Shown here: in pieces, positions 1,167-25,900 of the stretch | Layout of the letters: every line of letters begins with the position of its first letter | Position numbering within the stretch: the first letter of the stretch is position 1 | DNA from: Thermofilum adornatum | GTDB taxonomy: Archaea; Thermoproteota; Thermoprotei; Thermofilales; Thermofilaceae | Length of the DNA: 32,000 nt | NCBI RefSeq assembly: GCF_000446015.1 | Contig: NC_022093.1 | Coordinates: 870,001-902,000 of the forward strand | Direction of reading: 5' to 3' | Made by a program: the position numbers and the translations under genes | Notes under the pieces: generated by a model | Databases searched by the model: none | The model's input: only the letters and a program-made list of their open reading frames with translations | What the model was told of the DNA's origin: nothing

Positions 1167-1625
1167 ATGTACATGGATGTGGACATGTTCTGGGAAGACG
1201 TCGAGAAAAGAGTGAAAAAGGTCATCGATGGGGTAGAAGAGACACTCAAGGTCATGCTTGAAAACAAGAAGTTAACAGTTGAGGAGGCACAGGAAATCTT
1301 GGATTCTCTTGCTCCAAGTTTTTCCCTGCTTGCTAGAAAAGGTGTTCTGCAGATTCTATACACATTGTTGCTTCTGGGACCATGCACGTTTACAGAGCTT
1401 CTAGAATCCTCAAAGGTAAATCGCAGAACGCTCTCTTTTCGGCTGAAACAGCTTCAACGTGAAGCAATGATAACTAGATATATAGAGACGGTCGACAGGG
1501 AGAGGCAAGGAAAGACTCTCTATGTATTGACAGAGAAGGGGAGGTCTGCGGCGCTCCTTGCCATCCCCCTTATCTACTACATATCGAAGATGCATAAATC
1601 TTCTAGTCTCCATAACTCGCTATAG
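1167..1625 (+). CDS. Winged-helix transcriptional regulator, HxlR/ArsR-like
   Basis: KGVLQILYTLLLLGPCTFTELLESSKVNRRTLSFRLKQLQREAMITRYIE...TLYVLTEKGRS matches the HxlR-type wHTH pattern (recognition helix plus wing, Y-x-LT-x-KG). The true start may be ATG 1173 or 1185. Confidence 0.7.
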   Translation: MYMDVDMFWEDVEKRVKKVIDGVEETLKVMLENKKLTVEEAQEILDSLAPSFSLLARKGVLQILYTLLLLGPCTFTELLESSKVNRRTLSFRLKQLQREAMITRYIETVDRERQGKTLYVLTEKGRSAALLAIPLIYYISKMHKSSSLHNSL

Positions 1626-2672
1626 AACAAAAGGATCTATTTCAAGAACTATTCTCCTAGGCCTTGGGTCTCCAGACCTAAAAAGAAGAGCGTTCCCCCT
1701 GGTTCCAAAAGCTATGTGGTCAAATTCTTCTCTGCCAAGCGAAAATAGGGAAGCTATGTCAGCAATGTAGCTCTCGGGTCCAGAGAGCGCCACCACGTAT
1801 CCTGCTAGCTGGAAGATCCTTGGGTCAAATTCTCGGGGGAGCTGTGTGACGGCAAGTATGCTCAGGCCGAACTTTCGTATCTCCTTGAATAGTCTTAGGA
1901 AGTAGTCTTTTAGCAGATGTGCCTCTTCTAGGACAACTATTAGGTCCACCCTATTTCTAGAACCAAGACTCCTCATATATCCTTCTAGTAGGAGAAGTAA
2001 AATCTGTGAAGCAGTGGCATGAAGCTCTCGCGAGACTAAGGTCGGAAACGTAATGTGGAGGTTCTTTTCAGCGAGCTCTCTTATTTTGAAGCCGTCCTCG
2101 GAATAGAGTTTTCGCAGATCATCATATATACGTTTGAGGTTGGGATCCTCATTTTTTACTCTTTCGAACGGATACAGACTTTTCTCTTCAAAGCATTTAG
2201 CTAGGATTTCTCTTAGAATGCTCCTATACCCGGGAAATGCATATATTTTCTCGAGGTAATAGGAAAGCTCGCTGGCAAGCTCTTCGGGGCTCCAGCCAGG
2301 GTGTTCCATGAAGTATATTTTTTCCACGGTGAGCTCTAGTCTCGTGTCCATTATGCTTGTATAGGATTTTTCGCTGTGTGGGTCTATTACCCACTCCTTT
2401 ATGCCCATTTTCTGGGCCTGCAAGAGGATATGTCTAGCAAGTGTTGATTTTCCTGAACCAGTGGATCCTACGATTACTCCATGCATGTTAGGCAATTTGG
2501 AGGGGTTAACCCTGACTTCTCTTCCTCTATCGTCTCGGCCTAGTATAAACCCATGAGTTTCTTCTGGGGGAGACAGTATACTGAAAGGGGTGAATATTGC
2601 TAGGTCGCCTGATAGACCGAAAGCCTCGCGTGAAAAGGCTTTTCTCATGTAATGATAAAGGGTTTCGCTCAT
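1620..2672 (-). CDS. P-loop ATPase of the HerA/VirB4/FtsK class (CedB/TedB-like ATPase domain)
   Basis: Walker A is GSTGSGKST about 70 aa from the N-terminus, followed by VIDPHSE, Walker B LIVVLEEAHLL and AVTQLP. This motif order is typical of VirB4/HerA (DUF87/AAA_10-like). ATGA start/stop overlap with the upstream ORF at 2669-2672. Confidence 0.75.
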   Translation of the reverse strand: MSETLYHYMRKAFSREAFGLSGDLAIFTPFSILSPPEETHGFILGRDDRGREVRVNPSKLPNMHGVIVGSTGSGKSTLARHILLQAQKMGIKEWVIDPHSEKSYTSIMDTRLELTVEKIYFMEHPGWSPEELASELSYYLEKIYAFPGYRSILREILAKCFEEKSLYPFERVKNEDPNLKRIYDDLRKLYSEDGFKIRELAEKNLHITFPTLVSRELHATASQILLLLLEGYMRSLGSRNRVDLIVVLEEAHLLKDYFLRLFKEIRKFGLSILAVTQLPREFDPRIFQLAGYVVALSGPESYIADIASLFSLGREEFDHIAFGTRGNALLFRSGDPRPRRIVLEIDPFVL

Positions 2673-3751
2673 TCTAGGACACCTAGAGGAAGCAGGGATT
2701 TTTTAAATATGAAACCCACAGTTTTCAGGATTTTTACCTCGTTTTGTGTAGCAGCTAAGAGGCCTGATACGAGGTATAAGCTTTCTCTTCTCTCCCATCT
2801 TCGTCTGCTTGCTGCAAAAAACTTTGCACTGCTGTGGATGACGGAAAGCTTGTCGAGCGCGGTACCAAGCTCGTAATCTCTATAGGCTTTCGAATCTATT
2901 TCGTGTTCTACGTGTAATGGGCCCGGCGTTAGCCGTAGTAGTAAGAATATTTTGTCTGAAATGCTGTAGATCAATTGGGCTCGGGAAAAGATATCGAAGA
3001 TTGAGGGATACGAATAGAAACTTTGAATAGAGTCTAGCGTATAGAGCTCAGTAGAGTTCTTCCTCCTGTATCCGTGAAGATTTCCTGGAAAACTTGCTAA
3101 GAGGAGTGCTGAGGAGACGGGAAACAAAACAGGTGTCTTAAAGAAAAGGATTGAACCAAGGATTGCTAGGAAAAATTTTCTCAATTTGTTTCTTTTCGCT
3201 TTTTCTATGAAATCTGGACGCAGAATTCTATAGACTTCTGAACCACTCATAGGTCTGAAACTTAAACCGTGTCTCTCAAATGAACGTTTAAGTCTATAAA
3301 CTTCGCTCTTTATTTTTTCAGGTAAAGCTTCGAATCTGTTTGTGCACATCCTAGTGACGATGAAATATCTTCCCCTGTCAACTACTATAAAATAGGTATT
3401 ATTTCCTGTAAAAGTTGTATTTATAAAACTCTGGGTATAAAACCAGAATCTCTTTTCGCTCAAGTCGTTAACGTTGTGGCGTACATCAAAGAGCTCAAAC
3501 CCTATGTAGATGCATGTCTCATGCTTCCTAGCTTCCATGCAAAAATCCTCATCAATCGAGATTTCTCTAAGCGGATAACCTCCCAAAGCGAAAATAAGCG
3601 ACCAGACGTATATCTCTGGGAAGAAGAGTAGAAGAGATAAACTAATTATGGCTTGTCCTACTAGCTTCTCCTCTGGTCTACTCATGAGAAATATTCCCAG
3701 AGCAAAAAGCAGAAGAACAAAAAGATACCTTGTCTTCACATCATTCACCAA
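2669..3751 (-). CDS. Membrane protein, unknown family (N-terminal TM helices, soluble domain, central TM hairpin, C-terminal domain); possible detached VirB4/CedB N-terminal part
   Basis: Hydrophobic stretches YLFVLLLFALGIFLM, AIISLSLLLFFPEIYVWSLIFALGG and FFLAILGSILFFKTPVLFPVSSALLLASF. Tightly coupled on both sides. Start is ambiguous (TTG 3751, GTG 3748 or GTG 3739). Confidence 0.6.
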   Translation of the reverse strand: MVNDVKTRYLFVLLLFALGIFLMSRPEEKLVGQAIISLSLLLFFPEIYVWSLIFALGGYPLREISIDEDFCMEARKHETCIYIGFELFDVRHNVNDLSEKRFWFYTQSFINTTFTGNNTYFIVVDRGRYFIVTRMCTNRFEALPEKIKSEVYRLKRSFERHGLSFRPMSGSEVYRILRPDFIEKAKRNKLRKFFLAILGSILFFKTPVLFPVSSALLLASFPGNLHGYRRKNSTELYTLDSIQSFYSYPSIFDIFSRAQLIYSISDKIFLLLRLTPGPLHVEHEIDSKAYRDYELGTALDKLSVIHSSAKFFAASRRRWERRESLYLVSGLLAATQNEVKILKTVGFIFKKSLLPLGVLE

Positions 3752-6323
3752 ATTTTCTCCTAATTCTCTTCCAAAGCCCTTCTAAAGAATCAAACCTGCC
3801 TTCTCCGAGATAAAACCTTCTAAGCCCCTCAACTTCGATTCTTTCCTCTCTTTCAAGTATATCAAGTGCCTTAAGTCTAAGCATTCTCTTTACATCTCTG
3901 TCTGCAAAGAAGCTCAGAGGGACTCTAAGCTTCCTGGCAAGAATCTCGAAACTTTTTGGGTCTAGAGAGAGACTTGAAAGGGCCTCGTCTACTTCCCGCA
4001 GGCTCGAAGCCTTTCTTACCTTGTCTATGACCTTGTCTATTATCTGAGTATTCTCTCCAGACTTCTCCAAGCTCTTCCTAACTTCCTCTAGATGTGTGGT
4101 TGCCTGCTCCTTATAGCGTTCAAGAAAGTCTCTGTAAATTCCTGGAAAATATACCTGGAGAACCTGGTCATTATCGTCACGCATCCTTTTGAGCCTAGGG
4201 TCGTAGCCCATAAGGTATAGCCTTAGATTGGAGTAGCTATCCTCTAGGCGGCTCTGCAATCTTTTGGCAAGGTACCCGCTTTCTCTATGCAGGTATCGAA
4301 TTGCATTTACACTTGCTACGGGAAGGCTTTGATCTGCAAACCTACTTGCTTTCTCTACCTTTGAAGCAAACATATACAGTTTTCTTGCTTTGCTTTCTTT
4401 GTAGTGTTGCCTCGCAAAATCTCCGAGATTCATTAGTGTGGCGCTTGTGAATCTTAATATCGCTGGAAGTGGTTTATGGGATAGATATTTTGGAGATTCC
4501 CGTATTATTCTCTTAGAGAGTCTGCCGATGGTGACTACGGGATGATCCTTCTCTACTTCTCTACTTAAAACTAGCTCCTTATAGAGGGTACTAGGTCGCC
4601 AATCAATTTTTATAACGTTACTGTTTAGAGACCAAATTCTTTTAAGCTTTTTAGCCAGAGACACAAAACTGAAATGCGTTGAGTGTTTAAGAGAACTGAA
4701 ATGAATGCTTATCGGTGAAAAAATAGCCACTGAATAATACCCAACCGTTAACAAGATCCCGCTAAACATTATGAAGACCAAGAGAAAACTCTTGTAGAGT
4801 GCTAAGAGAGGGTAGATAAAACTGTTAAAATTTTCCTTAAGCCACCCATCTATGTGTGACACCTTTTGCCACAATGAAAGGTATGTTGGTGCAGAGCTGT
4901 GATTCCAATACCCTATCCCGTGTATTATGATTTTCGGGGAGGAAACGTTCCCGGAAAAGACTCCGGAGCAGTTCTTCTTGCCGAACCATATCTTTATGCC
5001 ATACTCTCTAAAGTTTGGTACTTCATCTTTAAGAACCAACTTGTCTGATAAGAATCCTGGAATCGCGTTGCGGATACGTTCAACCCAGTCATCGTAGCTC
5101 TTTTTCCAACTGTCTAATGCTCCGAGGTCTGCTATAACTCCTGGAGGCATTTCGTTTGTTACCCTGTAGTATAGAGTCCAGCAAGTCCCGTTCTTACTTA
5201 TAAGGGATTCATTCAAGTAGACAAGCTGGAAGTCTCCCCCCCGGATAAAAAACTCTCTAACAGATGTGCTGGGCTCCAAGGCAAACTCGACAGTGCCATT
5301 CTCGTTTCTCGAAGGGCGTAAGGGCACAACGCCTTCATATGCCACAACGTGGCCCATAGTTCCTTTTTCAGACGTAATGAGGAATATGGGTAGCCACACG
5401 TTGAGTTCTAGCGTTTGATTTGGCTTGAGAGAGAACTTTGCTGGGTAGGCGTAGCAGCTGCAGTATGAATAGGGAGATTTTTCATAGCAACATGGATGTA
5501 AAGTGAAATTTGTCCAATAGTTAATTATCCAGAGGACTGTATAGTTCCCCGCAGGTAGAACTAGCTGGTCACCATTTTTACCCTTTACAACAAAGAGCGT
5601 CGAGTTGGCATCTCGGAGACCTATAAGTATTGTGTCAAGTGTAGGGGTATCAGAAAAGTCTTTTACTTTAAGTCTAAGGGTTCCAGTAGGACTAGGCATG
5701 GCTCCGAATGGAGGCATTGATGTAGGTATAGACTCTGTCTCAGAAATAGTGTATGGGAGAGCTAAAGAAAAAGCCAACAGTATCACAGAAGTTGGTAAAG
5801 CAAACTTCCTAATTTTCGGTACCAGGCTTAGAAGAATTATGGTTCTAGTTACGTTTCTTAGATTTCTTAAAGAATCTATTAGGAACCCTGTAATGCTTGT
5901 AATGAGCCAGGCTGCGCCTGTCTGAACTGAGAGGTATTCAAGCTGTGCAAGAACCGTATGTCGGAACAGGTCAAAATACTCGAGGGCGATTGTTGCCTCG
6001 GGTGCACCTAGTGTTGCGGCCAAGCTTATAATTGAATCAACAACTGCGCTGCCAAAGAGTAGTTGCAAAGCTCCAGTATAGGCTTTGTACAAATTTCCCT
6101 CAAGCTCTTTAAGTTTCTTAATAGAACAATCTATGCTTACCATTGCATATTGTGAGTAAAGTCTTAGCAGTATCACAACGACTCCTGCATAGAGGATCAG
6201 TTCTACAACTCTTTGCGACAATACGTTTAGCGATTGTTTCCGTCTCTGAGTAAACCAGTAGAAGAGAGCCTCGGCAACGACCAGAGAAAAAGCCAACCCG
6301 AACCAAACAAGTTCCTCGTTCAT
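3741..6323 (-). CDS. Large (860 aa) membrane glycoprotein: N-terminal TM bundle, sequon-rich ectodomain, TM hairpin, about 300-aa charged helical cytoplasmic domain
   Basis: Long uninterrupted ORF. About ten N-x-S/T sequons (NST, NYT, NFT, NQT, NGT, NES, NGT, NCS, NVS, NHS) are confined to the region between the TM clusters. Cys cluster HPCCYEKSPYSYCSCY. ATGA overlap with the upstream gene at 6320-6323. Confidence 0.7.
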   Translation of the reverse strand: MNEELVWFGLAFSLVVAEALFYWFTQRRKQSLNVLSQRVVELILYAGVVVILLRLYSQYAMVSIDCSIKKLKELEGNLYKAYTGALQLLFGSAVVDSIISLAATLGAPEATIALEYFDLFRHTVLAQLEYLSVQTGAAWLITSITGFLIDSLRNLRNVTRTIILLSLVPKIRKFALPTSVILLAFSLALPYTISETESIPTSMPPFGAMPSPTGTLRLKVKDFSDTPTLDTILIGLRDANSTLFVVKGKNGDQLVLPAGNYTVLWIINYWTNFTLHPCCYEKSPYSYCSCYAYPAKFSLKPNQTLELNVWLPIFLITSEKGTMGHVVAYEGVVPLRPSRNENGTVEFALEPSTSVREFFIRGGDFQLVYLNESLISKNGTCWTLYYRVTNEMPPGVIADLGALDSWKKSYDDWVERIRNAIPGFLSDKLVLKDEVPNFREYGIKIWFGKKNCSGVFSGNVSSPKIIIHGIGYWNHSSAPTYLSLWQKVSHIDGWLKENFNSFIYPLLALYKSFLLVFIMFSGILLTVGYYSVAIFSPISIHFSSLKHSTHFSFVSLAKKLKRIWSLNSNVIKIDWRPSTLYKELVLSREVEKDHPVVTIGRLSKRIIRESPKYLSHKPLPAILRFTSATLMNLGDFARQHYKESKARKLYMFASKVEKASRFADQSLPVASVNAIRYLHRESGYLAKRLQSRLEDSYSNLRLYLMGYDPRLKRMRDDNDQVLQVYFPGIYRDFLERYKEQATTHLEEVRKSLEKSGENTQIIDKVIDKVRKASSLREVDEALSSLSLDPKSFEILARKLRVPLSFFADRDVKRMLRLKALDILEREERIEVEGLRRFYLGEGRFDSLEGLWKRIRRKFGE

Positions 6324-7093
6324 GTTCTCAAGACGCTAATCATTACCGTGTCAAATATCGAGGCCAAGCCTATCCCGCCAATCGTTGCTAGAGTAGACGC
6401 AAAAATGCTAAGAGTCAGTGAACGCCCAAGCTCAACAGCGGCGTCGCCAATGATTCCAGCAATATTTATCCAGTCCGTAGGATTGATGGCTTGAGGTACC
6501 CTTATCTTCGAGAGTGCCTCGGCTGTTACCTGAGAGGAAAAAGCTATTGCAAGCGAGGTAGAAAGATAGAGGGATACCAGGGATATTCCAATTTTTCTAA
6601 GCCTTGGTATAGGTGTCAAGGTAGTGCCAAGAGCAAACAAGTAAGAAGAGACCATGGAAAATACCTGTGCAACGAACGAGAAATGCATGTAGAATATTGC
6701 TACTAGACTTAGCTCTGAGAGGCTCCAGCCAGTAGCTCCAGACAATACGCTGACAAGAGGAGCCGTTAGTGGTGTACTAGCGAGAATAGCTTTTTCGGTC
6801 TCTACAAAAAAGAGCATGTCTACAGCTTTTCTGCTTGCATCCCAGAAAATTCCTGAGGCAGTCGAGCATATATTGCTGACTTCCAAACTGTTCCAGAGAT
6901 TAATATTTAACCCGGCCATGCTGGCTAATTCAGAGGTTATAGAAAAAATCAGTTGCACGATAAAGATTAAGGCGAGGGATACAGTGGCATCTTCGAAATA
7001 TTTCAAAGCTGTCTGCCTCTGTCCAAGGCTCCAGTAAATAGAACCAAGGGCCAGATAAGCTGCAATGCCGGAGGCAATTATGAATATATCCAT
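6320..7093 (-). CDS. Polytopic (about 6 TM) membrane protein, VirB6/TrbL/CedA-like by size and topology
   Basis: 257 aa, almost entirely hydrophobic helices separated by short loops. Sits between the pilin-like ORF and the large membrane protein. The call rests on topology and context only; there are no diagnostic motifs. Confidence 0.55.
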   Translation of the reverse strand: MDIFIIASGIAAYLALGSIYWSLGQRQTALKYFEDATVSLALIFIVQLIFSITSELASMAGLNINLWNSLEVSNICSTASGIFWDASRKAVDMLFFVETEKAILASTPLTAPLVSVLSGATGWSLSELSLVAIFYMHFSFVAQVFSMVSSYLFALGTTLTPIPRLRKIGISLVSLYLSTSLAIAFSSQVTAEALSKIRVPQAINPTDWINIAGIIGDAAVELGRSLTLSIFASTLATIGGIGLASIFDTVMISVLRT

Positions 7094-7099
7094 TGGGAG

Positions 7100-7693
7100 C
7101 TACCCCGTGAATACTGAAATAATAATTTTCCAGCCCTCGTTCAGCAGAGTATTAAAAATCTCGGCAATTGAAGATATTTCGTTTATTCCAATATTTTTCA
7201 TGATGTTCACGAGTAGGAAAAGCAAGGGAATAATGGCGAGTGTTTCGACTGCTCTTAAAAATTTGCTTACGGCAAGACTTCTCCCAAAACTGCCACCTGT
7301 GACCCAGGAAACAACTGCGTCAAAAACTATGAAGAAGAAGCCGAGCAAGCCAATGCCAAAAGCTATGGCAAAGAGAAGTGCAACAGCGTCTCGAAATGGC
7401 TTAAAAATATTTGTTATGAGGTCTGAGGGCTGTGCAAGAATTATTCTTGTGTCTACAGTAACGATTTGAATGAAAAATAGCAGGAGCAACGATTTTAGAC
7501 GCTTTTTGTTGTCATGCAAGGCCTCTTCTATAGCGAGTTTTATTTTCCTGAAAGTTTCCTTGTCGGAAAAATTTTTTCTATCAAATTTAGCAATTCTCCT
7601 CAAATTATACTCATAGAGCACCCTGATAAGAATCAGTTTTAGCCGACTCATAACTCTCTGGCAAGATTTTGCTGGAACAATATAAGTTGGCAC
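7100..7693 (-). CDS. VirB2/TrbC-like pilin candidate with long N-terminal leader
   Basis: GTG start (alternative ATG at 7651). Basic n-region KKRLK, h-region SLLLLFFIQIVTV and c-region ending ILA|QPS. Then two hydrophobic helices (AVALLFAIAFGIGLLGFFFIVFDAVVSWV and AVETLAIIPLLFLLVNIM) joined by a basic loop (GGSFGRSLAVSKFLR). Confidence 0.5.
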   Translation of the reverse strand: MPTYIVPAKSCQRVMSRLKLILIRVLYEYNLRRIAKFDRKNFSDKETFRKIKLAIEEALHDNKKRLKSLLLLFFIQIVTVDTRIILAQPSDLITNIFKPFRDAVALLFAIAFGIGLLGFFFIVFDAVVSWVTGGSFGRSLAVSKFLRAVETLAIIPLLFLLVNIMKNIGINEISSIAEIFNTLLNEGWKIIISVFTG

Positions 7694-7718
7694 AAATTGG
7701 AAGTCTCCTCTGGCATCG

Positions 7719-7727
7719 CTATATATT
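7719..7727. promoter_or_regulatory. Palindromic TATA element (CTATATATT) in the 65-bp divergent spacer of the two operons
   Basis: Centre is about 30 nt from GTG 7693 (minus operon, near-leaderless) and about 36 nt from ATG 7759. GAGGGGT (7744-7750) is a Shine-Dalgarno-like element 8-9 nt before ATG 7759. Confidence 0.45.
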
Positions 7728-7758
7728 CCCTCAGGTAAAGGTTGAGGGGTAAAAAATC

Positions 7759-8478
7759 ATGAGCGATATTGTTGCCTTTGGAAGTGGCTATAAAGGTGGA
7801 ACAGGAAAAAGTGTACTATCGAGTTTGGTTGGATATACGCTTGCTGTGAATGGGAGAAAGGTTCTGCTAGTCGACTTGGGCGAGTACGGTAGTAGCACAA
7901 ACCTTTGCCTAGAGGAAGATCCCGGACCCCCATACTTGTCAGATTTCTTTTGGGGAAAAGCCACGTGGAGAGACGTCATAGTTGAAAGCAGTTATTCGTC
8001 CAACCTCTGGATAGCTCCAAGCTCCAAGGAACAAGGACCAATAGACGCGGAAAGCCTAGAATACCTACTGGACAACGCTAGTAAATATGTGGACTACGTA
8101 ATACTCGACCTGCCGTCTTATCCAGGGACACTTCTTGACCCCATAGTGTTGCTAGCAGACATAATTGTACTTGTAACCAACCCAGATAGGCTCTCTATAC
8201 TTGCTGTAAAAAACTGGATATCTACGCGTCCCTTTGCCAAAAACAATATCTTAAAAATTCCTGTTTTGAACAAATACCACTCTCTCTTGCACAAATGGCT
8301 GGACAAGATGCGAGAGGAGTACGGTGTAGTATTTCCCATAAGCTTTGACCCGGCTTTGACATTTACTTTTACAGAGACAATAAAGGAAGCCTACAGCCTA
8401 ATAAGTAAAAGAACCAGGGAAGAGGTCATGCTACTTGTACAGAGAATAAACAAGCCCCTCCTAAAGGTGACTGGATAA
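7759..8478 (+). CDS. ParA/MinD-family ATPase (TadZ/CpaE-like position)
   Basis: Deviant Walker A GSGYKGGTGKSV, then VLLVDLG, then Walker B-like VILDLP. The stop overlaps the next start (TAATG at 8476-8480). Confidence 0.8.
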   Translation: MSDIVAFGSGYKGGTGKSVLSSLVGYTLAVNGRKVLLVDLGEYGSSTNLCLEEDPGPPYLSDFFWGKATWRDVIVESSYSSNLWIAPSSKEQGPIDAESLEYLLDNASKYVDYVILDLPSYPGTLLDPIVLLADIIVLVTNPDRLSILAVKNWISTRPFAKNNILKIPVLNKYHSLLHKWLDKMREEYGVVFPISFDPALTFTFTETIKEAYSLISKRTREEVMLLVQRINKPLLKVTG

Positions 8479-8846
8479 TGAGCCACAAAAGACCCCTAGT
8501 CAATGAAGGTCAACTAGAAGAGAAGCCTCGAGAAGAAACCTCCAGCAAGCCACAGTTATCAACGCCTAGACCTGCAATTCTACAAACAAGGACAGACAGA
8601 AGTGGCGGCAATACAAGTGGAGACTTCGTCCAAAAAGGTCTAGAGGGTTTCAAGGCGGTTCTACAGTCTCTGGGGCTTGATTCTTCGCTAGCCTCAAAGC
8701 TAGAAGAAAAATACTTTGCAATAGATGAGGAAATCAGGAAAATAAACGAGAAAATAGATTCACTAGAAAGGGAAAGAAACAAGCTCCTAGCAGACAAAGA
8801 GAAACTGACCAGACTCCTCAAAATGTTTTCAGAAATAAGAAGCTGA
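8478..8846 (+). CDS. Small protein with disordered N-terminal half and C-terminal coiled coil
   Basis: S/T/P/R-rich N-terminus. The C-terminus EEIRKINEKIDSLERERNKLLADKEKLTRLLKMF is heptad-like. Translationally coupled between two ATPase genes. Confidence 0.55.
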   Translation: MSHKRPLVNEGQLEEKPREETSSKPQLSTPRPAILQTRTDRSGGNTSGDFVQKGLEGFKAVLQSLGLDSSLASKLEEKYFAIDEEIRKINEKIDSLERERNKLLADKEKLTRLLKMFSEIRS

Positions 8847-8851
8847 AAAAC

Positions 8852-10006
8852 ATGAAGATAAAGTTTAGATTCAAAGATAAAAAAGAAAAAGAACTTATCC
8901 CAGTAGAGGACTCTATTCCAAGAGACTCGATACTTATAGACAAAAATCCCTTGGGCGCCCTGTTTATACGGGACTCCACACTGTCTGTGATTCCATTCAA
9001 GGATGACGACGTTTGGGGCCCATTGGGAGCTCTCTTCGCATCCGACAAGGTTGAGGAAGCCTGGATATTCAAAGACAAAATAATTGCGACGCTCAGTAAT
9101 CTTGGTCGAATACAGCTCTCGCTAGACAATCTCGACATACGGGTCGAGGACATAATTTCTCGTCTAATTGCTCATACAGGTGTAAATGTTTCCTTTAGAA
9201 ACCCGCGCGGCGTCGCCGAGTACGGTAACTGGAGGATAGCTATACAGCTCCACTCCGGCGGACAACTACACGTTGTAGCTACAAAGATAAAAAAGGTGCC
9301 GCCAATCACGGAGATCCTTCCCCCAGAGATAAGTGTAAAACTCCTCTTGTTGATCTTAAGGCCTAGCACAGTTATTATTAGTGGGCCCCCAGGAAGCGGA
9401 AAGACAACATTACTAAGTAGCATAGTGGGGACTCTAGGTCAGCTATTCCCCTGGCTCCACATAGCCATAGTCGAAAAATACAGGGAACTCGACTTTCAAG
9501 GAGGATGGTTTTCACACGTTGTAAGCGAAGATATAGCCGAAGGAGTCAGGTACTCAATGCGGTACCTCCGCCCAGACCTACTAGTCGTCGGAGAAATAAT
9601 GGCCGAGGACTTCTGGAGCCTCCTCGAGCCATCGAGAGCAGGCATCCCGACACTAACTACCTTCCATGCTCCCTCGGTCGAAAAAGCCGTAAGAACTCTC
9701 AGCGACGCGCTACAGGTACATCTCAAGGGCTCTCCAAACGTCTACACATACCTCGACATAATAGTAAACACAAAAAAACTTGTGACCATTGACGGTGTAA
9801 AAAGATTCGTAAACGCGATATACATCTCAGACGGACAGAGAATACTACCAATATACCTCGACGGCCAACCAGTCGACGACAAACTACTCGAAAAAGCACT
9901 CCCAGACAAACTCTACATAGGCGACACAAAACAAGTAGAAGAAACCCTCCTCAGGCACCTCGTAAAAACCCACGTAGACAACAGAGTCCAAGCAAAGGTC
10001 ACATAG
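8852..10006 (+). CDS. Type II/IV secretion-family hexameric ATPase (VirB11/PilT/TadA/FlaI class)
   Basis: Walker A ISGPPGSGKTTLLSS, Asp/Walker B box RYLRPDLLVVGEIMAEDFW and His box TLTTFHAPSVEKAVRTL. The N-terminal domain carries a GNWRIAIQL...VVATKIKK pattern typical of this family. Confidence 0.8.
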   Translation: MKIKFRFKDKKEKELIPVEDSIPRDSILIDKNPLGALFIRDSTLSVIPFKDDDVWGPLGALFASDKVEEAWIFKDKIIATLSNLGRIQLSLDNLDIRVEDIISRLIAHTGVNVSFRNPRGVAEYGNWRIAIQLHSGGQLHVVATKIKKVPPITEILPPEISVKLLLLILRPSTVIISGPPGSGKTTLLSSIVGTLGQLFPWLHIAIVEKYRELDFQGGWFSHVVSEDIAEGVRYSMRYLRPDLLVVGEIMAEDFWSLLEPSRAGIPTLTTFHAPSVEKAVRTLSDALQVHLKGSPNVYTYLDIIVNTKKLVTIDGVKRFVNAIYISDGQRILPIYLDGQPVDDKLLEKALPDKLYIGDTKQVEETLLRHLVKTHVDNRVQAKVT

Positions 10007-10010
10007 CACC

Positions 10011-11420
10011 TTGAACCCGGAAGAGTTCTTCAGAAAAGCAGGACTAAAACCAAGACCACTACAGCTAGAAGCAGCCAAACAGCTCGCCGAAATGATCGAC
10101 ACAGGTTCAGTAGGCTTCCAGGCTCCCACCGGTTTCGGAAAAACAATTACAGTTCTAGCCGCGATATCACTTGCAGACGCGTTTCCAGTAACTTGGAGAG
10201 TCCGAACATTCGACATAGCGAAACGGGTCTCTGATGACTGCGCGCTCTTAGGACTTCCATTCTATATAGCTGCTGGACGCGAAAAACTCTGTCCTCTAAA
10301 AGAAGAATATAAATCAAACACCTACTATTTTTGCAGGTTTCTAAAATTTAAGTGTCCATTCTTTAAAGGTTTGTCAAGTATCAAACCAGAAAACATTTTT
10401 AGTGTCGACTATGACCAGTTGTTAAGAAAGCTAAAGGGCACAGAGATTTGTCCTTACTATGCTCAGCTCTATCAGCAAGCTCACGTCTACATTATTCCCT
10501 ATAGTCTAGGTTTGTCATTCGACGTCAACTTAGAGGTAATTGATGAGGCACATAATATGGTACTTGATGTTTATAGTATTCCTGAGGCAAAACTTAGAGA
10601 AGCCTTAGCTGAATTGGATATTCACTACGAACCCACAGGAGACCTAATCCAGCAAGCATTCATTGAGACTGCCCAGATGAAGATCGTAGAGCTACTCGAA
10701 CAGGGAAAAATGCCACTCATTGCGGGAAGAGTAATAGCAATGCTTGCCAGGGGAACCTTTATTTGGCGAGAGGAGGGAGAGATACACATTCTGAAATTTA
10801 TTCGACCAAGGAAAAGAACGATTTTCGTAAGTGCAACACTAGAACCTTTACAAAAAATATACAATATACCTGTTTTAGAAATACCTGTTCAGAGAAAACC
10901 AGAAGCACTCATTGCAACGTGGATGACGACTAGATTTCATGAATGGGACTATAAGATGGCTAAGGAATATAATGATTTGATTTTTCTCCTCAGAAAACAT
11001 TTCCAAAGAATAGTTGTATTTGCTACTAAAAGAGTAGCTCGTAGCCTAAGGGCGGACTACGTGGAAGAAGCCCCCAGTGATTGGAAAGGTGTATTTCTAC
11101 TTTTTTCCCGTGGTAAAAAAGGTGAAGGAGTAAATATAGAATCAGAAGTTGTTGTCGTAGCAGGAGCCCCATATCTTCCACCTTTTATACACGTAGAGAA
11201 ACTTGGTTTAACTCATGATGATGTGGCAACAATCACGACGATACAGAATATTGGGCGCACCTTAAGGCATCCTGAAAACAACCCTTTGATCATACTAGCT
11301 GACGATCGTTTTCGAAAACTGAAACCCACACTAGATAGATACTATACAAACATAGAGACGGATGATCTACACTCGTTAGATAAAGCGATACAAAAATACA
11401 AAGCTTCCCATCCAAGCTAA
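10011..11420 (+). CDS. XPD/Rad3/DinG-family superfamily-2 helicase, compact (469 aa), with 4-Cys Fe-S cluster domain
   Basis: Motif I QAPTGFGKT. Cys ligands are C94-x13-C108-x6-C115-x31-C147 ending in CPYY. DEAH box VIDEAHN, then FVSATL, GEGVNI and QNIGRTLRH. TTG start 4 nt after the upstream stop. Confidence 0.75.
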   Translation: MNPEEFFRKAGLKPRPLQLEAAKQLAEMIDTGSVGFQAPTGFGKTITVLAAISLADAFPVTWRVRTFDIAKRVSDDCALLGLPFYIAAGREKLCPLKEEYKSNTYYFCRFLKFKCPFFKGLSSIKPENIFSVDYDQLLRKLKGTEICPYYAQLYQQAHVYIIPYSLGLSFDVNLEVIDEAHNMVLDVYSIPEAKLREALAELDIHYEPTGDLIQQAFIETAQMKIVELLEQGKMPLIAGRVIAMLARGTFIWREEGEIHILKFIRPRKRTIFVSATLEPLQKIYNIPVLEIPVQRKPEALIATWMTTRFHEWDYKMAKEYNDLIFLLRKHFQRIVVFATKRVARSLRADYVEEAPSDWKGVFLLFSRGKKGEGVNIESEVVVVAGAPYLPPFIHVEKLGLTHDDVATITTIQNIGRTLRHPENNPLIILADDRFRKLKPTLDRYYTNIETDDLHSLDKAIQKYKASHPS

Positions 11421-11470: not shown

Positions 11471-11827
11471 ATGGGGTTAGATACAAAGTGGAAGGTTGCT
11501 ATGTCTGAGACCACGCAATGCATGATACAGGGTTGCAACTCGGCGGCAGACATAATCATAGAACTGAAGGGTCAGCAACTAGTGCTCTGCAGGACGCATT
11601 TCAAGGGACTTATCAGCCGTCTTTCACGTGTTGCAGAGAGAAGCGGGGCGGCATATCCTTCCAGGATAAAGCTTGTAAAGATGGAAGATGGAAAAGTAAA
11701 ACTATTAATCAGGAAGACACGTAGCAAAAAGAAGAAAGAAGAGGAAGAAAAAGGTACCAAGAAAAAGGGAAAGAGCAAGAAAGGGAGAAAAGCCCGCTCA
11801 AAAAGCTCGAAGAAAACAAAAAAGTAG
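11471..11827 (+). CDS. Small protein with putative zinc finger and poly-lysine C-terminal tail
   Basis: CMIQGC...LCRTH (C-x4-C...C-x2-H) followed by KTRSKKKKEEEEKGTKKKGKSKKGRKARSKSSKKTKK. The alternative start ATG 11501 keeps both parts. Confidence 0.5.
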   Translation: MGLDTKWKVAMSETTQCMIQGCNSAADIIIELKGQQLVLCRTHFKGLISRLSRVAERSGAAYPSRIKLVKMEDGKVKLLIRKTRSKKKKEEEEKGTKKKGKSKKGRKARSKSSKKTKK

Positions 11828-11835
11828 AGATGATT

Positions 11836-12348
11836 CTACCCTTTTTCGTGTAGATGTAGGAGCATTGAAGCCTCGTCTGAGAGTATCTTCTCTAGCTGTT
11901 GGGCCACTTCCTCGCTAACCATCTTTTTATTTACGGCACTCTTTAGTTCTTCCTTTTTCTCTTCTATGTCCCCGGCTGAAAGACTAACTGGCAGTCCAGA
12001 TTTCACGCAGTGAGTAATATACATGAGGGTTATTTCTTCGTAGGCCAGCCACAGTGTTTGATATTCTTCTTTGAGTCTAGCTATCTCCTCCTGTAGTTCG
12101 TCAAGCTTCTTTTTCACTTTTTCTTCACTTAAAAGGCCGAGATCAAGCTTGAGACTTAGCTCCTCTGTAGTCCTCAGATCTGTCTCTAGTTTGACCCTGA
12201 CCTCGCTAAGCCTATCCAGTAAATCTATCCTGAAAGCCTCCCATTCACGCACAGTAGTCTTTACAAAGGTATAGTAGTTATTCCAGAGCTCCTCCGCTTT
12301 GAGAAAACTCTCTCTAAATCTTTCCAACTGTTCACGTAAGTGTTCCAT
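11836..12348 (-). CDS. Coiled-coil protein with SHOCT-like motifs, paralog of the C-terminal part of 12350..13132
   Basis: E/K/L-rich heptad sequence. Shares ELW-x2-Y-x7-V-x-EWE-x2-R and x-SEE-x motifs with the upstream gene. 1-nt gap to the upstream stop. Confidence 0.55.
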   Translation of the reverse strand: MEHLREQLERFRESFLKAEELWNNYYTFVKTTVREWEAFRIDLLDRLSEVRVKLETDLRTTEELSLKLDLGLLSEEKVKKKLDELQEEIARLKEEYQTLWLAYEEITLMYITHCVKSGLPVSLSAGDIEEKKEELKSAVNKKMVSEEVAQQLEKILSDEASMLLHLHEKG

Positions 12349-12349
12349 G

Positions 12350-13132
12350 TCACTCCACCTCTTCCTTTATTTTCTCTAAACGTTGAATCTTATCCTCAAG
12401 CTCGGCCCTGAGCCTCATGTAGACTTCTTCAGAGATGCTCCCACTCTTGAATCTTTCCTCTAGTTTTGACAAGGCAAGCCTCAGTTTGGCCAACTCTGGC
12501 TTCGCCTCTGCAACCTTAACACGCTTATAATGCGGCAAAACAACTCTATCAAGATCCGCGAGTTTCTTCGTCAAGGCCTCCTTTTCGCTATTTTTTTCCG
12601 CCAGCTTTTTCTCTAATCTCGAGATTAAGTCAATATACTCTTCCTCGCTGATCTTTCCTTCATCGAGTAATTTTTCTAGACGTCCCTTCTCACTTATATA
12701 TGCATTGATAACGGCCTCTAGACCTGCCAGTTCCCGCTTTATCTTGTCCCTAAGCTCTTCCCATTCCTCTACGACTCTCCTAGCTTCACTTTCATAACTT
12801 TCCCATAGCCTTGCGAGCTCGCTAGCCCTATCGATCAGCCTGTCCACCTCGTCTGTGAAGCGCTCCGCGGAGACTTCTGTCGGAGAAACAATGAGGGTTG
12901 GCATTTCAACAGTAGGGACAGTTGCTGGAGGTGCTTCCTGCTGTTTAATCTCTTCTTTCTCGACTTCTAAAGCCTTTTCGGCCTGCTTGTGCCTAATATA
13001 GAACGGGCATTCCCAGTATTCTAACAGGCACGGCATAAAAGCCGGGTCAATCTCGGCGTTGTCTGCAAACCTACAGTAAAACTTGCCCTTCTCGTCCTTG
13101 TATAAGCCTGGACACACAGTTGCACGCGACAT
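12350..13132 (-). CDS. 4-Cys N-terminal module plus coiled-coil/SHOCT-like repeat protein
   Basis: N-terminus C7-x12-C20-x14-C35-x6-C42-P, then a linker, then a long coiled coil with LLDEGKISEEEYIDLISRLEKKL and FKSGSISEEVYMRLRAELEDKI (SHOCT-like). Confidence 0.6.
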   Translation of the reverse strand: MSRATVCPGLYKDEKGKFYCRFADNAEIDPAFMPCLLEYWECPFYIRHKQAEKALEVEKEEIKQQEAPPATVPTVEMPTLIVSPTEVSAERFTDEVDRLIDRASELARLWESYESEARRVVEEWEELRDKIKRELAGLEAVINAYISEKGRLEKLLDEGKISEEEYIDLISRLEKKLAEKNSEKEALTKKLADLDRVVLPHYKRVKVAEAKPELAKLRLALSKLEERFKSGSISEEVYMRLRAELEDKIQRLEKIKEEVE

Positions 13133-22967: not shown

Positions 22968-25900
22968 ATGAGTAGAAAATACCTATTAGGAATAATAGCC
23001 CTAGTAGCAATACTCGCACTGACACTGCAAGCATACGCTGCACCTACGTTCCCAGCCCACAGGGCATGGAACGTGCTACAGTATCCAAATGGTCAGCCAT
23101 TCAAGAACCAAAACGTTATCATTGTCTACTTTAACGAGACAGGCAACTGTCTACTCGCATACGCTGTTGGAACAACAAATTCTGCAGGAAACATAACCCT
23201 AACAATTGCCCAGCCCGGAGGAGTAATAAATACTCCAAACACTGGCACAAGCTACAACATGTCAGTATTCTGGCAAGTCTACGGCAAAACATTCCTAGTA
23301 TACTCAACACGCACCAACGCCCTCAACCTACTCAACTCCACCATTCAGCTTACAAACATGATGAACTTCACCTTCCAGGCTCTAACAACGATTGGCGGTC
23401 AGCAGGTTCCGCTATACTTTGCTGACCCAGAGGTTTCTGGCAGGAAAGACATTGCCTACTTCCAGGTATACTTATACAACAAGAACGGGCCACAACTCCT
23501 GGCAGTAGAAGGAGACAACAATGCTATTTCAAAGGGAAGTGTTGTAGTTCCACTAGTTGAGGTCAACATAAAGCCGACACTTACACCTAACTGTTACCAC
23601 ATTGAAAGCCAAAAGAACGTGGCTCTCTACAAGGAGGTATACTGGCTCCTCGACCAGGGCGGAGGACAAAAACTGAAAATAATGGTAGGCAAAGAGAACG
23701 TAACATTCTCACTTTCTGGAACAACCCTCACTGCAAATGTTAAAGACCTGGCAGATGGCACAACATCTCCACAGACCTTCGACATAGTAAACGACTGGGG
23801 CAAAAAACCACTGAACGACGTTGCACACACCTTCCTAGCACAAGTAGTTGTCACAGACCCATGCGGCAACCCGATCTCCAACTGGGAATACCCACCAATA
23901 GGTATCGAATTCACTTCTCCAACATATGGTAAGCTCAGAGTAGGAAAAGCCTTCCCGAACGGGACAGCTCCAGAAGAAGGATACCAGTTAAGTGGTCACT
24001 ACTACTTCTGGTTACCAAACATATCCCTATTCTACAATGAAAAAATGGGCATCGCTGCCGAAATAGGAGGTATACAGGTATTTGCAGAAGCCTTCAACAC
24101 AACAAAACCACAAAGCGTAACATACAATAAACCATTCACCTTCCAGCCGCTCACAGTATCAACTAGCAATGGAATAGTAACATTAACAATAAAGGCAAGC
24201 ATAGTCAAGACCCAGATCACCATCAAGACCAGTGGACTCGTAGCCGTCCAGCCACTCCAGGGAGCAATTGTCCAGATAAGCCCAAGAGTCTTCGACCCCA
24301 ACACCTATACTGACGCTAACGGACAAGTAGCACTAATGCCATTCCAGATAGTTGGCGGCGGAACAACAACCTCTGGCACGCCAATAATCACAAGGAAGGG
24401 CACATCCCCAGGCTACCTGCCAGTCCCATATGGTTTATGGTCAACAGGCAAACTATACACCTACACTATTAACGTGTTATGGGCACTACCAGGAACAGAA
24501 AACTTCGTAGATGTAACTCCAGACCAGAACACAATACCACTAAACCTAACCAAAGCCATTGTACAGTGCTCAGTACAGTCTTTCAACCTATCCGCAAAGG
24601 TTTACGCTGTCAACTTTAAAGCAGTCGACCTATGCGGCCGCCCACTCACCAGCGCAGACGACCCCAACGCCACATTCATCCTAACCTACAAGTCCACCGA
24701 CGGGACAACCATTAACTTCCCAGCAGGACTCGGACCCAACGGAACAACATTCATGGCCTTCGTCCCAGGAGGAACATTTACTGTAAGCCTCTTCTTCAAA
24801 GGAGTCAGAATGGATCCCGTAAGTGGACCCAACCCACTAGTCGTTAGCGGGAACATCGGAAACATTAGCAAAGCCACCTACACATTCCCTGTCGGCGACC
24901 TCATCTTGAGGATAACCCCATGGGACGTCAAGGAACCCCTCGTTAACGTTTCAGTGCTCCTCGAATACTTTAAAGCCGGCGCTAGAACATACTACGAGGG
25001 ACCAAAGCTCACAGACTGTGAAGGCAAAGTAACCTTTACAAAGGTGCCCTTCGTAGTTGGACCCAACAACCTCGTAACTGTGACCATAAAGACAACTCCA
25101 TACACCCCCTACATACGCCACCCGAAGGACGATGGCCTACTAATTGGTAAATGGAACCTTACAGGCCTACTGAAGGGAATCAGTCCAGGATGCACAGTCG
25201 GGCCAATCGACGTGCCGACCTGGGTCTTCAGCTTCACACTTGAAGCAGTAGACCACAACGGCAACATACTCAAAGAGCTCCCAACAAGCAACGGCGCAGC
25301 ACCAGTAATCGTCGCCATAAACGACACCTACACAAAGAACGAGTACAACGTGACACAGGTATGCCAGGGTGGACCCGGCTGCCTCTGCTGGCCACTCATA
25401 AACGTAAACTACAAGATATTCAACACCACTAAGTCCGGCCCAGCAGGGCCATGGAACAACGGCCTGTCCGAGGCCAGGTTCAAGGTCACCGGTACACAGT
25501 GGGCAAACAGCAACTATCCACACCTATTCATTGCTGGAGCCAACTACAGCTTCGTCGTGTGGTACGGAGGAGTAATGGTCTACAACTACAACTTCACACT
25601 ACCAAGGCCAAGCGAGATGCTCGACTACAGTAAAGTCATAACTGCACAGGTTATACTCTACAACGAGACAAGCGGCAAGATGACCCTACAGAAGACCGAC
25701 AGCCTTGCCTATACATGGCTACTCGCTAGTGGCGGAAGAATCGAGCACCCAATCGTCCGCTTCTACGCGGCACCAGCATACAGCGGCCAATACAGCAACA
25801 AGCTCCAGCTCGTAACCTGGGTAGTCAACCTCGACATCTACACCTTGACGAAGGCAGGCGGAGGACTAGTCCCAGGACTCAACGTCACACTAATCAGGAA

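Follow-up and report, generated by a model that had tools for sequence, protein, structure and literature searches.

The chromosome of Thermofilum adornatum (NCBI RefSeq assembly GCF_000446015.1, contig NC_022093.1) carries, within the 32,000-nucleotide stretch from position 870,001 to 902,000 that was analysed here and is called the window throughout, nine tightly coupled genes in two divergent operons (1620-11420 of the window, open reading frames (ORFs) checked on the sequence; Table 1). A reading made from the sequence alone, referred to below as the sequence-only reading, had taken this cluster for a DNA-transfer machine of the Ced/Ted class. Archaeal chromosomal DNA exchange by domesticated conjugation machinery is known only as Ced, in the Sulfolobales and Desulfurococcales, and as Ted, in the Thermoproteales, and both the processing of donor DNA and the proteins that complete the envelope complex are open questions in these systems (PMC11823120, PMC11868833). 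Five of the nine genes described here have no family assignment above a curated cut-off in Pfam or NCBIfam.

Table 1. Features of the Thermofilum adornatum cluster and its adjoining regulator gene, in window positions
Feature	Position	Strand	Remarks
350-aa soluble P-loop ATPase	1620..2672	-	FtsK-HerA superfamily, catalytic domain only
360-aa membrane protein	2669..3751	-	partner of the ATPase, directly upstream of the ATPase gene
860-aa membrane glycoprotein (predicted)	3741..6323	-	N-terminal 196 residues paralogous to the 257-aa protein
257-aa polytopic membrane protein	6320..7093	-	six long helices; candidate VirB6/CedA/TedA-type subunit
Small exported protein	7100..7693	-	197 aa from GTG, probably 183 aa from ATG at ~7651; candidate VirB2/TedC-like pilin
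Divergent intergenic region	7694..7758		central TATATAT element; 65 bp with the longest ORF
239-aa ParA/MinD-family ATPase	7759..8478	+	deviant Walker A KGGTGKS
122-aa coiled-coil protein	8478..8846	+	between ParA and the secretion ATPase
384-aa secretion-superfamily (T2SSE) ATPase	8852..10006	+	Pfam T2SSE
469-aa XPD/DinG-family Fe-S SF2 helicase, compact form	10011..11420	+	Pfam, TIGR and PADLOC matches
152-aa HxlR/MarR-type regulator	1167..1625	+	Pfam HxlR 8.5e-7; convergent with the ATPase gene

The coordinates and junctions given for both operons by the sequence-only reading were all recovered on the sequence. In the minus-strand operon, initiation and termination codons overlap as ATGA at 6320-6323 and again at 2669-2672, where the stop of the 360-aa protein overlaps the start of the ATPase, with an 11-nt overlap at 3741-3751 and a 6-nt gap (7094-7099) between the stop of the pilin-like gene and the start of the 257-aa gene. 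The plus-strand genes are joined by a TAATG at 8476-8480 and then by gaps of 5 nt and 4 nt. The motifs ascribed to the two operons were likewise all found, namely GSTGSGKST, VIDPHSE, LIVVLEEAHLL and AVTQLP in the 350-aa ATPase, KGGTGKS in the ParA-type protein, and SGPPGSGKTT, RPDLLVVGEI and TTFHA in the secretion-superfamily ATPase. The 65-bp spacer claimed between the operons holds for the longest, GTG-started ORF only; the orthologues of the first minus-strand gene and the annotation of a metagenome-assembled genome (MAG; GCA_038873655.1), a 358-kb contig of which bears the identical ATPase sequence, begin at an ATG 14 codons downstream, near position 7651, and thus the divergent spacer is probably about 107 bp. 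The sequence of this intergenic region is not kept between genera, and its alignment gave no conserved element. A scan with sigma-70 promoter and terminator models, which are bacterial and not applicable to archaea, found no enrichment.

The whole locus recurs in Thermofilum pendens Hrk5 and in Infirmifilum lucidum, with equal gene order, the same overlaps and the same HxlR/geranylgeranyl-reductase flank, and the order and coupling of the genes are found again in several MAGs. Thus, the nine-gene arrangement is not due to chance. Within Thermofilum the chromosomal position and flanks are identical, in Infirmifilum they agree on one side, and the genes that flank the cluster are housekeeping genes. 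Homologues of the ATPase are found only in Thermofilaceae and related uncultured Thermoprotei, at 59% identity in T. pendens, 51-53% in Infirmifilum and 30-38% in distant MAGs. Thermofilaceae being a family of the order Thermofilales, the Desulfurococcales were wrongly named as the host group of the cluster. Two broader scans added little: one of genome contigs with the ATPase alignment, in effect a generic P-loop pattern, returned only Bacilli and other bacterial loci and is uninformative on archaeal distribution, and one of metagenomes with the pilin-family alignment returned two near-identical loci only.

The recurrence of the full locus, with its order, overlaps and flank, in T. pendens and I. 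lucidum argues for a resident, vertically inherited chromosomal system, as the sequence-only reading had proposed. The relatives of the ATPase among conjugation proteins, together with the ParA gene, would also suit a remnant of an integrated conjugative plasmid or element. Such an origin is extremely improbable: no integrase, relaxase or replication gene occurs among the matches of window proteins to the family libraries, a scan of the window found no tRNA gene that might have served as a target, and the direct repeats around the block are short, imperfect and at chance level, with no long or exact pair bracketing it. The GC content of the block is like that of its flanks, and the shared position in Thermofilum, and on one side in Infirmifilum, points to long vertical residence. 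On the absence of integrase, tRNA and repeats and on the conserved synteny, an integrated element was rejected.

Not all parts of the locus are equally constant. Among the loci compared (L numbers below), the five-gene minus-strand operon is the constant unit, and the ParA gene adjoins this membrane operon in every lineage examined except L022. The coiled-coil gene, with orthologues in L005, L020 and L029, always lies between ParA and the secretion ATPase where it is found. In one Thermofilum clade (L025, L027 and L028), ParA is followed directly by the helicase gene, and the coiled-coil and secretion ATPase genes are missing; one further locus has neither this pair nor the helicase. In all Thermofilum and Infirmifilum loci the helicase gene accompanies ParA, either 4 nt from the secretion ATPase gene or directly after ParA, and it is absent in L029 and L022. 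Inheritance of the two operons together is therefore not strict, since the secretion ATPase, the coiled-coil protein and the helicase are each missing in some lineages. In the case of the convergent HxlR gene, which overlaps the 3' end of the ATPase gene by 6 nt, the same position is kept in L005, L020, L025, L026 and L027, and not in L028 or L022; its product is possibly a regulator of the system, or merely the product of a conserved neighbour.

A link to conjugation is provided by the 350-aa ATPase. The protein matches Pfam DUF87 at 7e-9, and the profile of its family, compared with PDB sequences, finds HerA (4d2i, 2.4e-14) and the VirB4 C-terminal domain (4ag5, 5e-14), the latter with an alignment reaching both ends. 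End-to-end alignment with VirB4 C-terminal domains includes the C-terminal L-[ST]-x-x-E...RG-x-x-L region, and in a profile-profile comparison (hhalign) with TrwK of plasmid R388, 298 columns align to residues 390-754 at a probability of 67.6%. In a census of 26 family members against curated models, CedD, VirB4 CD1110 and VirB4_plasma each match 26 of 26, CedB 24 and TraC 17, whereas HerA models match only 7-9; CedD is the best-matching curated ATPase model for every member (best 1.4e-19). The nearest outgroup of the family in a search of 5.8 billion proteins is a CedD-like protein (8e-82 to the CedD model). The wider reach of the CedD, VirB4 and CedB models, together with this outgroup, suggests that the protein, which has the catalytic domain only, belongs to the VirB4/CedB/CedD neighbourhood and is closer to the ATPases of conjugation and of Ced than to HerA, a placement that is provisional as to clade. 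The earlier label of a HerA/VirB4-class ATPase stands as to its motifs, with the VirB4 side matched the more consistently; the VirB4 N-terminal domain is lacking. CedD and VirB4 homologues have been reported in Thermofilales by Wu et al. (PMC11868833), and the present family may be one of these. A lone homologue (L021:10001-11101), 38% identical over the aligned region, lies between genes for a NOG1 GTPase and eIF5A and has no membrane partners within 10 kb.

The gene for the 360-aa membrane protein lies directly upstream of the ATPase gene in every locus with membrane genes, including the distant L007 and L022, the L021 orphan being the exception. The protein has two N-terminal transmembrane (TM) helices, a domain of about 130 residues, another hydrophobic stretch and a C-terminal domain that is highly conserved and has the motif YRxYExGTAxDKLS...RRRWERRE (TM candidates at 5-23, 31-56 and 194-219), and no match to it was found in Pfam, NCBIfam or PDB. 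Because of its strict linkage to the ATPase gene, it is proposed to be the membrane anchor of the ATPase, and hence a functional stand-in for VirB3 and the VirB4 N-terminal domain.

The small protein that the first minus-strand gene encodes is a candidate VirB2/TedC-like pilin, judging from its predicted layout. Its hydrophobic segments lie at residues 69-87, 106-124 and 152-170, the latter two joined by a WxTGGSFGRS loop, and its orthologues share a core that consists of I-F-x-P-F, a first hydrophobic helix, the loop W-x-T-G-G-S-F-G-R-S, a second hydrophobic helix and a C-terminal amphipathic helix. In four orthologues, a hydrophobic h-region ending in A-x-A/Q-P, with the stroke at the putative cleavage site, can be seen by inspection ahead of this core, and the versions of 136-139 aa have what looks, again by inspection, like a plain short classical signal peptide. 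TedC and the bacterial VirB2/TraA pilins have been described with the same layout of a leader and two hydrophobic helices (PMC9905601). Thus, the VirB2/TrbC-like character claimed for this protein can be upheld for its layout, but no sequence or profile link to VirB2, TedC, CedA1 or TraA was found. The family was also aligned with the first hairpin of the 257-aa family, and a W-x-x-G-x-R-x-x-A loop was matched at an E-value of 0.005 and a probability of 7%, which is not significant; related pilin and channel hairpins have been reported for CedA1/CedA and for VirB2/VirB6.

The neighbouring 257-aa protein is a candidate channel or platform subunit of the VirB6/CedA/TedA type. An AlphaFold2 model from an alignment of 22 sequences has six long helices (pLDDT 88.8, pTM 0.82), and a Foldseek search of PDB with this model lists VirB6 of R388, TrwI (7o3v_J), at rank 7, with a probability of 0.85, TM-scores of 0.40/0.40, 266 columns, an rmsd of 8.4 A and an E-value of 0.3. 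TrwI is the best natural full-length PDB match of the model by TM-score, and nothing was found in PDB at E<=0.001. Since a designed helical repeat protein scores similarly, this match is only a hint from modelling. The VirB6/CedA-like description given earlier accordingly keeps its six helices and a best natural full-length match, but has no sequence or profile link behind it and a fold match that is not significant. The family has about 20 true relatives of 250-380 aa in an exhaustive search of representatives, and those that can be traced are all from Thermofilaceae or Thermoprotei MAGs; no match was found among PDB sequences. Word-indexed searches with the protein returned 2-3 proteins each, while the exhaustive search returned 104 matches, of which some 80 were spurious tetratricopeptide repeat (TPR) proteins. 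The source of these is residues 11-37 (window 6982-7062), the first helix-turn-helix, AAYLALGSIYWSLGQRQTALKYFEDA, which scores as TPR_8 at 8.7e-5. A W-x-x-G-x-R-x-x-A-L hairpin like that of the 257-aa protein also occurs in the 860-aa protein and, weakly, in the pilin-like protein.

The 860-aa protein is, over its residues 1-196, a homologue of the 257-aa protein (hhalign of the two families: probability 95.9%, E 6.5e-9, 179 columns), so that, on profile comparison, the operon encodes a short and an extended paralogue of one polytopic protein. After this N-terminal part follow a sequon-rich predicted ectodomain (about 200-500), a TM region (about 502-540) and a charged, helical C-terminal domain. 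All 11 N-x-S/T sequons fall within residues 157-474, with none later, and the sequon region lies between hydrophobic segments at 171-193 and 502-540, in agreement with the ectodomain described by the sequence-only reading. The protein is homologous to a 1118-aa protein of L022 (2e-11), and neither it nor its family has a match in Pfam or PDB.

For the plus-strand operon, family assignments are more readily made. The ParA-type protein matches Pfam AAA_31 (3e-12) and ParA (8e-9) as well as archaeal MinD (1e-9), which agrees with its earlier identification; the accompanying view that such a protein is not known among the described Ced/Ted parts does not hold, as ParA/MinD has already been reported as a component of Ted loci (PMC9905601, PMC11823120). 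The 122-aa protein has only weak, coiled-coil-type matches in the family libraries. The 384-aa ATPase matches Pfam T2SSE at 4e-12, and the profile of its family finds, among PDB sequences, archaeal GspE (2oap, 2.6e-12, residues 50-357, including the N-terminal domain), DotB (2e-11), PilT, CpaF and FlaI (about 1e-10) and VirB11 (1e-7). In the NCBIfam list for the single sequence VirB11 and TrbB stand on top, though with 38 bits, where the cut-off is 250. The label of a VirB11-type ATPase is thus not the best choice, the profile being nearer to archaeal GspE, FlaI and CpaF, and the orthologue in L029 lying in an operon with a pilin-like gene that has a class III signal.

The helicase is, as had been claimed, an XPD-like Fe-S enzyme with the full XPD/DinG motif set. 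It matches Pfam Helicase_C_2, DEAD_2 and ResIII, with DEAD_2 and Helicase_C_2 just above their cut-offs, as well as TIGR rad3 (6e-9) and the PADLOC model of type IV CRISPR DinG (7e-21). Over five orthologues GxGKT, the cysteines C94, C108, C115 and C147, DEAH, SAT and QxxGR are invariant. The DinG match, together with a full-length match of the 350-aa ATPase to the defence-associated small ATPase mad8 (PADLOC, 3.8e-20), could be read as the mark of an anti-virus defence island built around a HerA/mad8-like ATPase and a DinG-like helicase. This is highly improbable, however, since PADLOC holds defence models only and the matches are those of nearest relatives within generic families. The other seven proteins have no convincing match to a defence model, no methyltransferase, nuclease, Cas protein or other MADS component was matched, and the products of four of the nine genes are membrane or exported proteins. 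In addition, the synteny is fixed between housekeeping genes across genera, unlike that of variable defence islands. With only the generic ATPase and helicase matches in its favour, a defence island was rejected.

A distant version of the cluster is carried by one 148-kb contig that comprises L029 and L007, and its ATPase is 37% identical to that of the window. Here, a pilin-like gene (139 aa) is paired with a gene for a 258-aa protein, and the next operon encodes ParA, a coiled-coil protein, the secretion ATPase, a 142-aa protein, a 362-aa polytopic protein and a 102-aa protein. Beyond these lie genes for a protein of 830 aa, for several small ones whose N-termini form hydrophobic helices, for proteins of 1086 and 266 aa, for the 367-aa partner and for the ATPase; no helicase gene is present. 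Besides the ATPase, orthology to window proteins was confirmed at identities of 40% for the pilin, 29% for the 258-aa protein, 32% for ParA, 31% for the secretion ATPase and 25% for the 367-aa protein. As a lineage of only 29-40% identity again combines the core genes with those for ParA, the coiled-coil protein and the secretion ATPase, the two modules travel together over a large evolutionary distance.

In this cluster the gene for the secretion ATPase precedes those for the pilin-like 142-aa and the polytopic 362-aa protein. The 142-aa protein (L029:12395-12823, minus strand) has a class III prepilin-type N-terminus, MNKRG/VAELTYIIVLIAML, and the gene for the 362-aa protein lies at L029:11305-12393, also on the minus strand. 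In appearance this is a complete type IV filament (TFF) module, with the pilin/VirB6-like pair on one side of it and the ATPase block on the other, and the secretion ATPase of this genome looks like its motor. Further small proteins of the distant cluster have similar prepilin-like N-termini, for instance a 197-aa protein beginning MVLKSRG/QILLLAVIIFGML, and the stretch L029:17736-19769 (plus strand) is among those that give the impression of a filament module. For none of these genes is there a homologue in the window.

These observations raise the question of whether the window holds two systems side by side, a Ced/Ted-like or novel minus-strand operon and a remnant or satellite of a MinD-associated TFF whose pilins and platform are encoded elsewhere or have been lost, much as Ups lies beside Ced. 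The profile of the secretion ATPase, closest to archaeal GspE, CpaF and FlaI down to its N-terminal domain, would fit such an arrangement, as would the MNKRG/VAEL N-terminus and the 362-aa polytopic protein that follow its orthologue in L029. MinD-associated TFF subsystems occur in Thermoproteales, and a helicase is found in the ups neighbourhood (bioRxiv 10.64898/2026.04.22.720090); moreover, one clade lost the secretion ATPase and the coiled-coil gene and kept the rest. Two independent systems are nonetheless quite unlikely. No homologue of a platform protein or class III pilin is present in the window, where the 142-aa and 362-aa proteins of L029 have no tblastn match, and the 362-aa protein itself has no T2SSF Pfam match. 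ParA stays with the membrane operon where the secretion ATPase has been lost, and the adjacency of the modules in lineages only 29-40% identical suggests functional coupling rather than coincidence. As the window has neither a platform protein nor class III pilins, the reading as a complete type IV pilus locus was rejected.

Among the closest known systems is Ted of Pyrobaculum calidifontis and other Thermoproteales (TedC pilin, TedA, TedB and TedD; PMC9905601, PMC11823120). Like the present locus it is chromosomal, has a small protein of two helices and a cleavable signal of the Sec type (putative in the present locus) whose gene lies directly upstream of a polytopic gene (tedC-tedA; PMC9905601), has a VirB4/HerA-class ATPase nearby and includes ParA/MinD and DNA-processing genes, and both occur in hyperthermophilic Thermoproteota without Ups. 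Against this, the small protein has no detectable sequence similarity to TedC, TedA and TedB are likened by description only, and Thermofilales lie outside the five genera reported for Ted. The present locus also differs from Ted in its catalytic-domain-only ATPase with a separate 360-aa membrane protein, in its second, extended polytopic paralogue with a predicted glycosylated ectodomain, and in its companions, with a secretion-superfamily ATPase and an XPD/DinG helicase where Ted has Rad50 and HerA.

The Ced system (CedA, CedA1, CedA2, CedB, CedD and CedE; PMC11868833, PMC11823120) is likewise resident in the chromosome, and is the one to which the ATPase points, through both its best curated model and its outgroup. 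A pair of paralogous polytopic proteins is common to both, CedA and CedE in Ced and the 257-aa and 860-aa proteins here, for which the extended VirB6 proteins may also be compared (PMC11868833), with the membrane parts likened by description. However, Ced genes are scattered and UV-induced, whereas the genes here form one compact locus, Ced pilins have no signal peptide where the small protein has a putative one, and CedB and CedD combine a TM segment and an N-terminal domain in one polypeptide, while the ATPase here has neither and scores far below their equivalog cut-offs.

With bacterial MPF_T type IV secretion systems such as R388 Trw and Agrobacterium VirB, the locus shares an ATPase that aligns with the TrwK C-terminal domain and with 4ag5, TrwI as the best natural full-length match of the 257-aa model, and a secretion-superfamily ATPase, in the manner of VirB11. 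In contrast, no VirB3, VirB5, VirB7-10, VirD4 or relaxase is present at the locus, profile comparisons with VirB2, VirB3, VirB6 and the VirB4 N-terminal domain were negative, and archaeal TFF ATPases are closer to the secretion ATPase than VirB11 is. The MinD-associated archaeal TFF and the Ups pilus (bioRxiv 10.64898/2026.04.22.720090) resemble the plus-strand operon in joining a secretion ATPase to a MinD/ParA partner, with a helicase beside the ATPase operon, and the distant relative L029 adds pilin-like genes with class III signals and a polytopic protein in the same operon. The differences are that the window has neither a platform protein nor class III pilins, that its secretion ATPase is short (384 aa) and that the module stands head-to-head with an operon for a HerA/VirB4-type ATPase.

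Taken together, a motor from the VirB4/CedD neighbourhood, a pilin-like protein with two helices and a putative Sec-type cleavage site, encoded beside a polytopic protein of VirB6-like character, and a companion ParA make a conjugation-derived envelope machine of the Ced/Ted class the most economical and the probable reading, with the function deduced from these parts. That the locus is a resident Thermofilales machine of this class, that is, domesticated type IV secretion or conjugation machinery, is favoured here by a modest measure. It is set apart by a motor that is split, by the duplication of its channel protein, one copy of which has a glycosylated extension, and by two further parts, a second ATPase of TFF type and a dedicated Fe-S helicase. 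The putative substrate is DNA, to judge from the relatives of the ATPase and from the linkage of helicase and ParA.

The measure is modest because DNA as substrate is inferred and because the tests of pilin and VirB6 membership at the level of sequence all failed, and a number of observations have to be set against this Ced/Ted-class reading. There is no direct sign of DNA as the substrate, and what supports the assignments to pilin and VirB6 is architecture, the order of the genes and a single weak match of fold. For the small protein, the single-sequence model (helices 91-132, 134-167 and 173-196) is of low confidence (pLDDT 57.7) and its Foldseek search against PDB was uninformative, comparison of the family with TrwL (hhalign) gave a probability of 0.75%, which is not significant, and the family profile found nothing among PDB sequences at E<=10 beyond three chance matches. 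The deposited pilin chains 8DFT, 8DFU and 8EXH are presumably within the PDB sequence file that was searched.

For the 257-aa protein, the TrwI match is weakened by its E-value and TM-score and by the similar score of the designed repeat protein, the TrbL Pfam model has no match at E<=1 in 22 family members, and comparison of the family with ten proteobacterial plasmid VirB6 sequences gave a probability of 0.3% with shallow profiles; the 860-aa family has no match to the VirB6 profile. The 360-aa family has no similarity in profile comparisons to VirB3, to the VirB4/TrwK N-terminal domain or to the N-terminus of CedD-like proteins. The ATPase, at 350 aa with its Walker A motif at residues 69-77 and no TM segment, lacks the VirB4-type N-terminal domain, falls far below the equivalog cut-offs of CedB (NF041017, 30.3 bits against 700) and CedD (NF053655, 43.2 against 600), and has the mad8 match noted above. 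Finally, the distant cluster and L022 have no helicase, and one Thermofilum clade has no secretion ATPase. In sum, the sequence-only reading is upheld in part, as to a conserved locus, the kinship of its ATPase, a pilin-like layout, a six-helix protein and the helicase, with no sequence or profile link found to VirB2, VirB6, TedC or CedA1.

Some of the same observations would suit an apparatus with no role in DNA transfer, in which the membrane operon forms a surface filament, an adhesion structure or a protein-export device with a HerA/FtsK-type ATPase and ParA for positioning, the helicase being a repair neighbour. No relaxase, nuclease, VirD4-type coupling protein or DNA-binding domain was matched in the membrane operon, and the lack of the helicase in the distant cluster and L022 is in keeping with such a neighbour. 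A role in adhesion would be consistent with the large, predicted glycosylated ectodomain, and with the 830-aa secreted protein and the many pilin-like small proteins of the distant cluster. Still, we consider this apparatus unlikely, as the closest annotated relatives of the ATPase, namely CedD, CedB, VirB4 and TraC, translocate DNA, the helicase gene keeps its place beside the secretion ATPase or ParA gene in all Thermofilum and Infirmifilum loci, and Ted loci likewise contain ParA and DNA-processing genes (PMC9905601).

If the locus does encode a Ced/Ted-class machine, its parts may act as follows. The small protein would be exported by the Sec pathway and cleaved at the A-x-A/Q site, as its sequence suggests, and its mature two-helix form would reside in the membrane and polymerise into a pilus or a short conduit. 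The 257-aa protein and the paralogous N-terminal domain of the 860-aa protein would form a membrane platform or channel, from which, on the predicted topology, the N-glycosylated ectodomain of the latter would pass through the S-layer to contact a partner cell, with its helical domain reaching into the cytoplasm. The 360-aa protein, whose gene is adjacent and coupled to that of the ATPase, may dock the soluble, VirB4-CTD/CedD-like (C-terminal domain) hexameric ATPase at the membrane, where the latter would drive pilin extraction, DNA translocation or both. To this the divergent operon would add a ParA/MinD ATPase, as in Ted loci, as well as a coiled-coil adaptor and a secretion-superfamily ATPase of archaeal TFF ancestry that may represent a second, dispensable motor. 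The XPD/DinG-type helicase would unwind chromosomal DNA to a single strand fit for a narrow conduit.

A bolder form of the same idea is that the locus represents a third lineage of archaeal conjugation-derived DNA exchange, a 'Thermofilales exchange of DNA' unrelated in sequence to Ced and Ted. In such a lineage the VirB4-type motor would be split into membrane and catalytic subunits, the channel would be built from short and extended glycoprotein paralogues, and the XPD/DinG helicase together with ParA would be the DNA-processing part that has long been looked for, taking the role of the relaxase and feeding single-stranded chromosomal DNA into the conduit. This is a speculative proposal, and the balance of probability lies against it. 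In full-text literature searches, neither this locus nor any locus of the Ted/Ced type was found to have been described for Thermofilum; only the remark of Wu et al. on ATPases came to light.

Other genes of the window lie at various distances from the cluster. Three small genes adjoin the helicase gene, at 11471-13132. Their products are of 118 aa, with a C-x2-C motif and a tail rich in lysine, of 170 aa, with a coiled coil, and of 260 aa, with a coiled coil and an N-terminus rich in Cys. These genes are kept in T. pendens and replaced by genes for a peptidase M24 and translin in Infirmifilum, and are probably not part of the system. Some 11.5 kb from the cluster, an ORF at 22968-28112 (plus strand) encodes a protein of 1714 aa that has CarboxypepD_reg and SpaA-like domains in its C-terminal part and is presumably a giant protein of the cell surface. 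At 28224-28982 (plus strand), 17 kb from the cluster, lies a gene for a 252-aa paralogue of the RadB/Rad51 family of recombinases (Rad51 Pfam 4.5e-51), followed by a gene of the NFACT family.

Systems of this kind escape annotation by Pfam and NCBIfam almost wholly. The locus brings together the genes for a candidate pilin, for two paralogues of the channel protein and for a split motor, along with those for ParA, a further ATPase and a helicase. If the Ced/Ted-class reading is true, a compact, operon-organised version from Thermofilales would extend the class to another order and would be a source of candidates for DNA-processing and anchoring components. The locus would then be a parts list from which candidate partners could be drawn for genetically tractable Ced hosts, the 360-aa anchor and the XPD-like helicase first among them.

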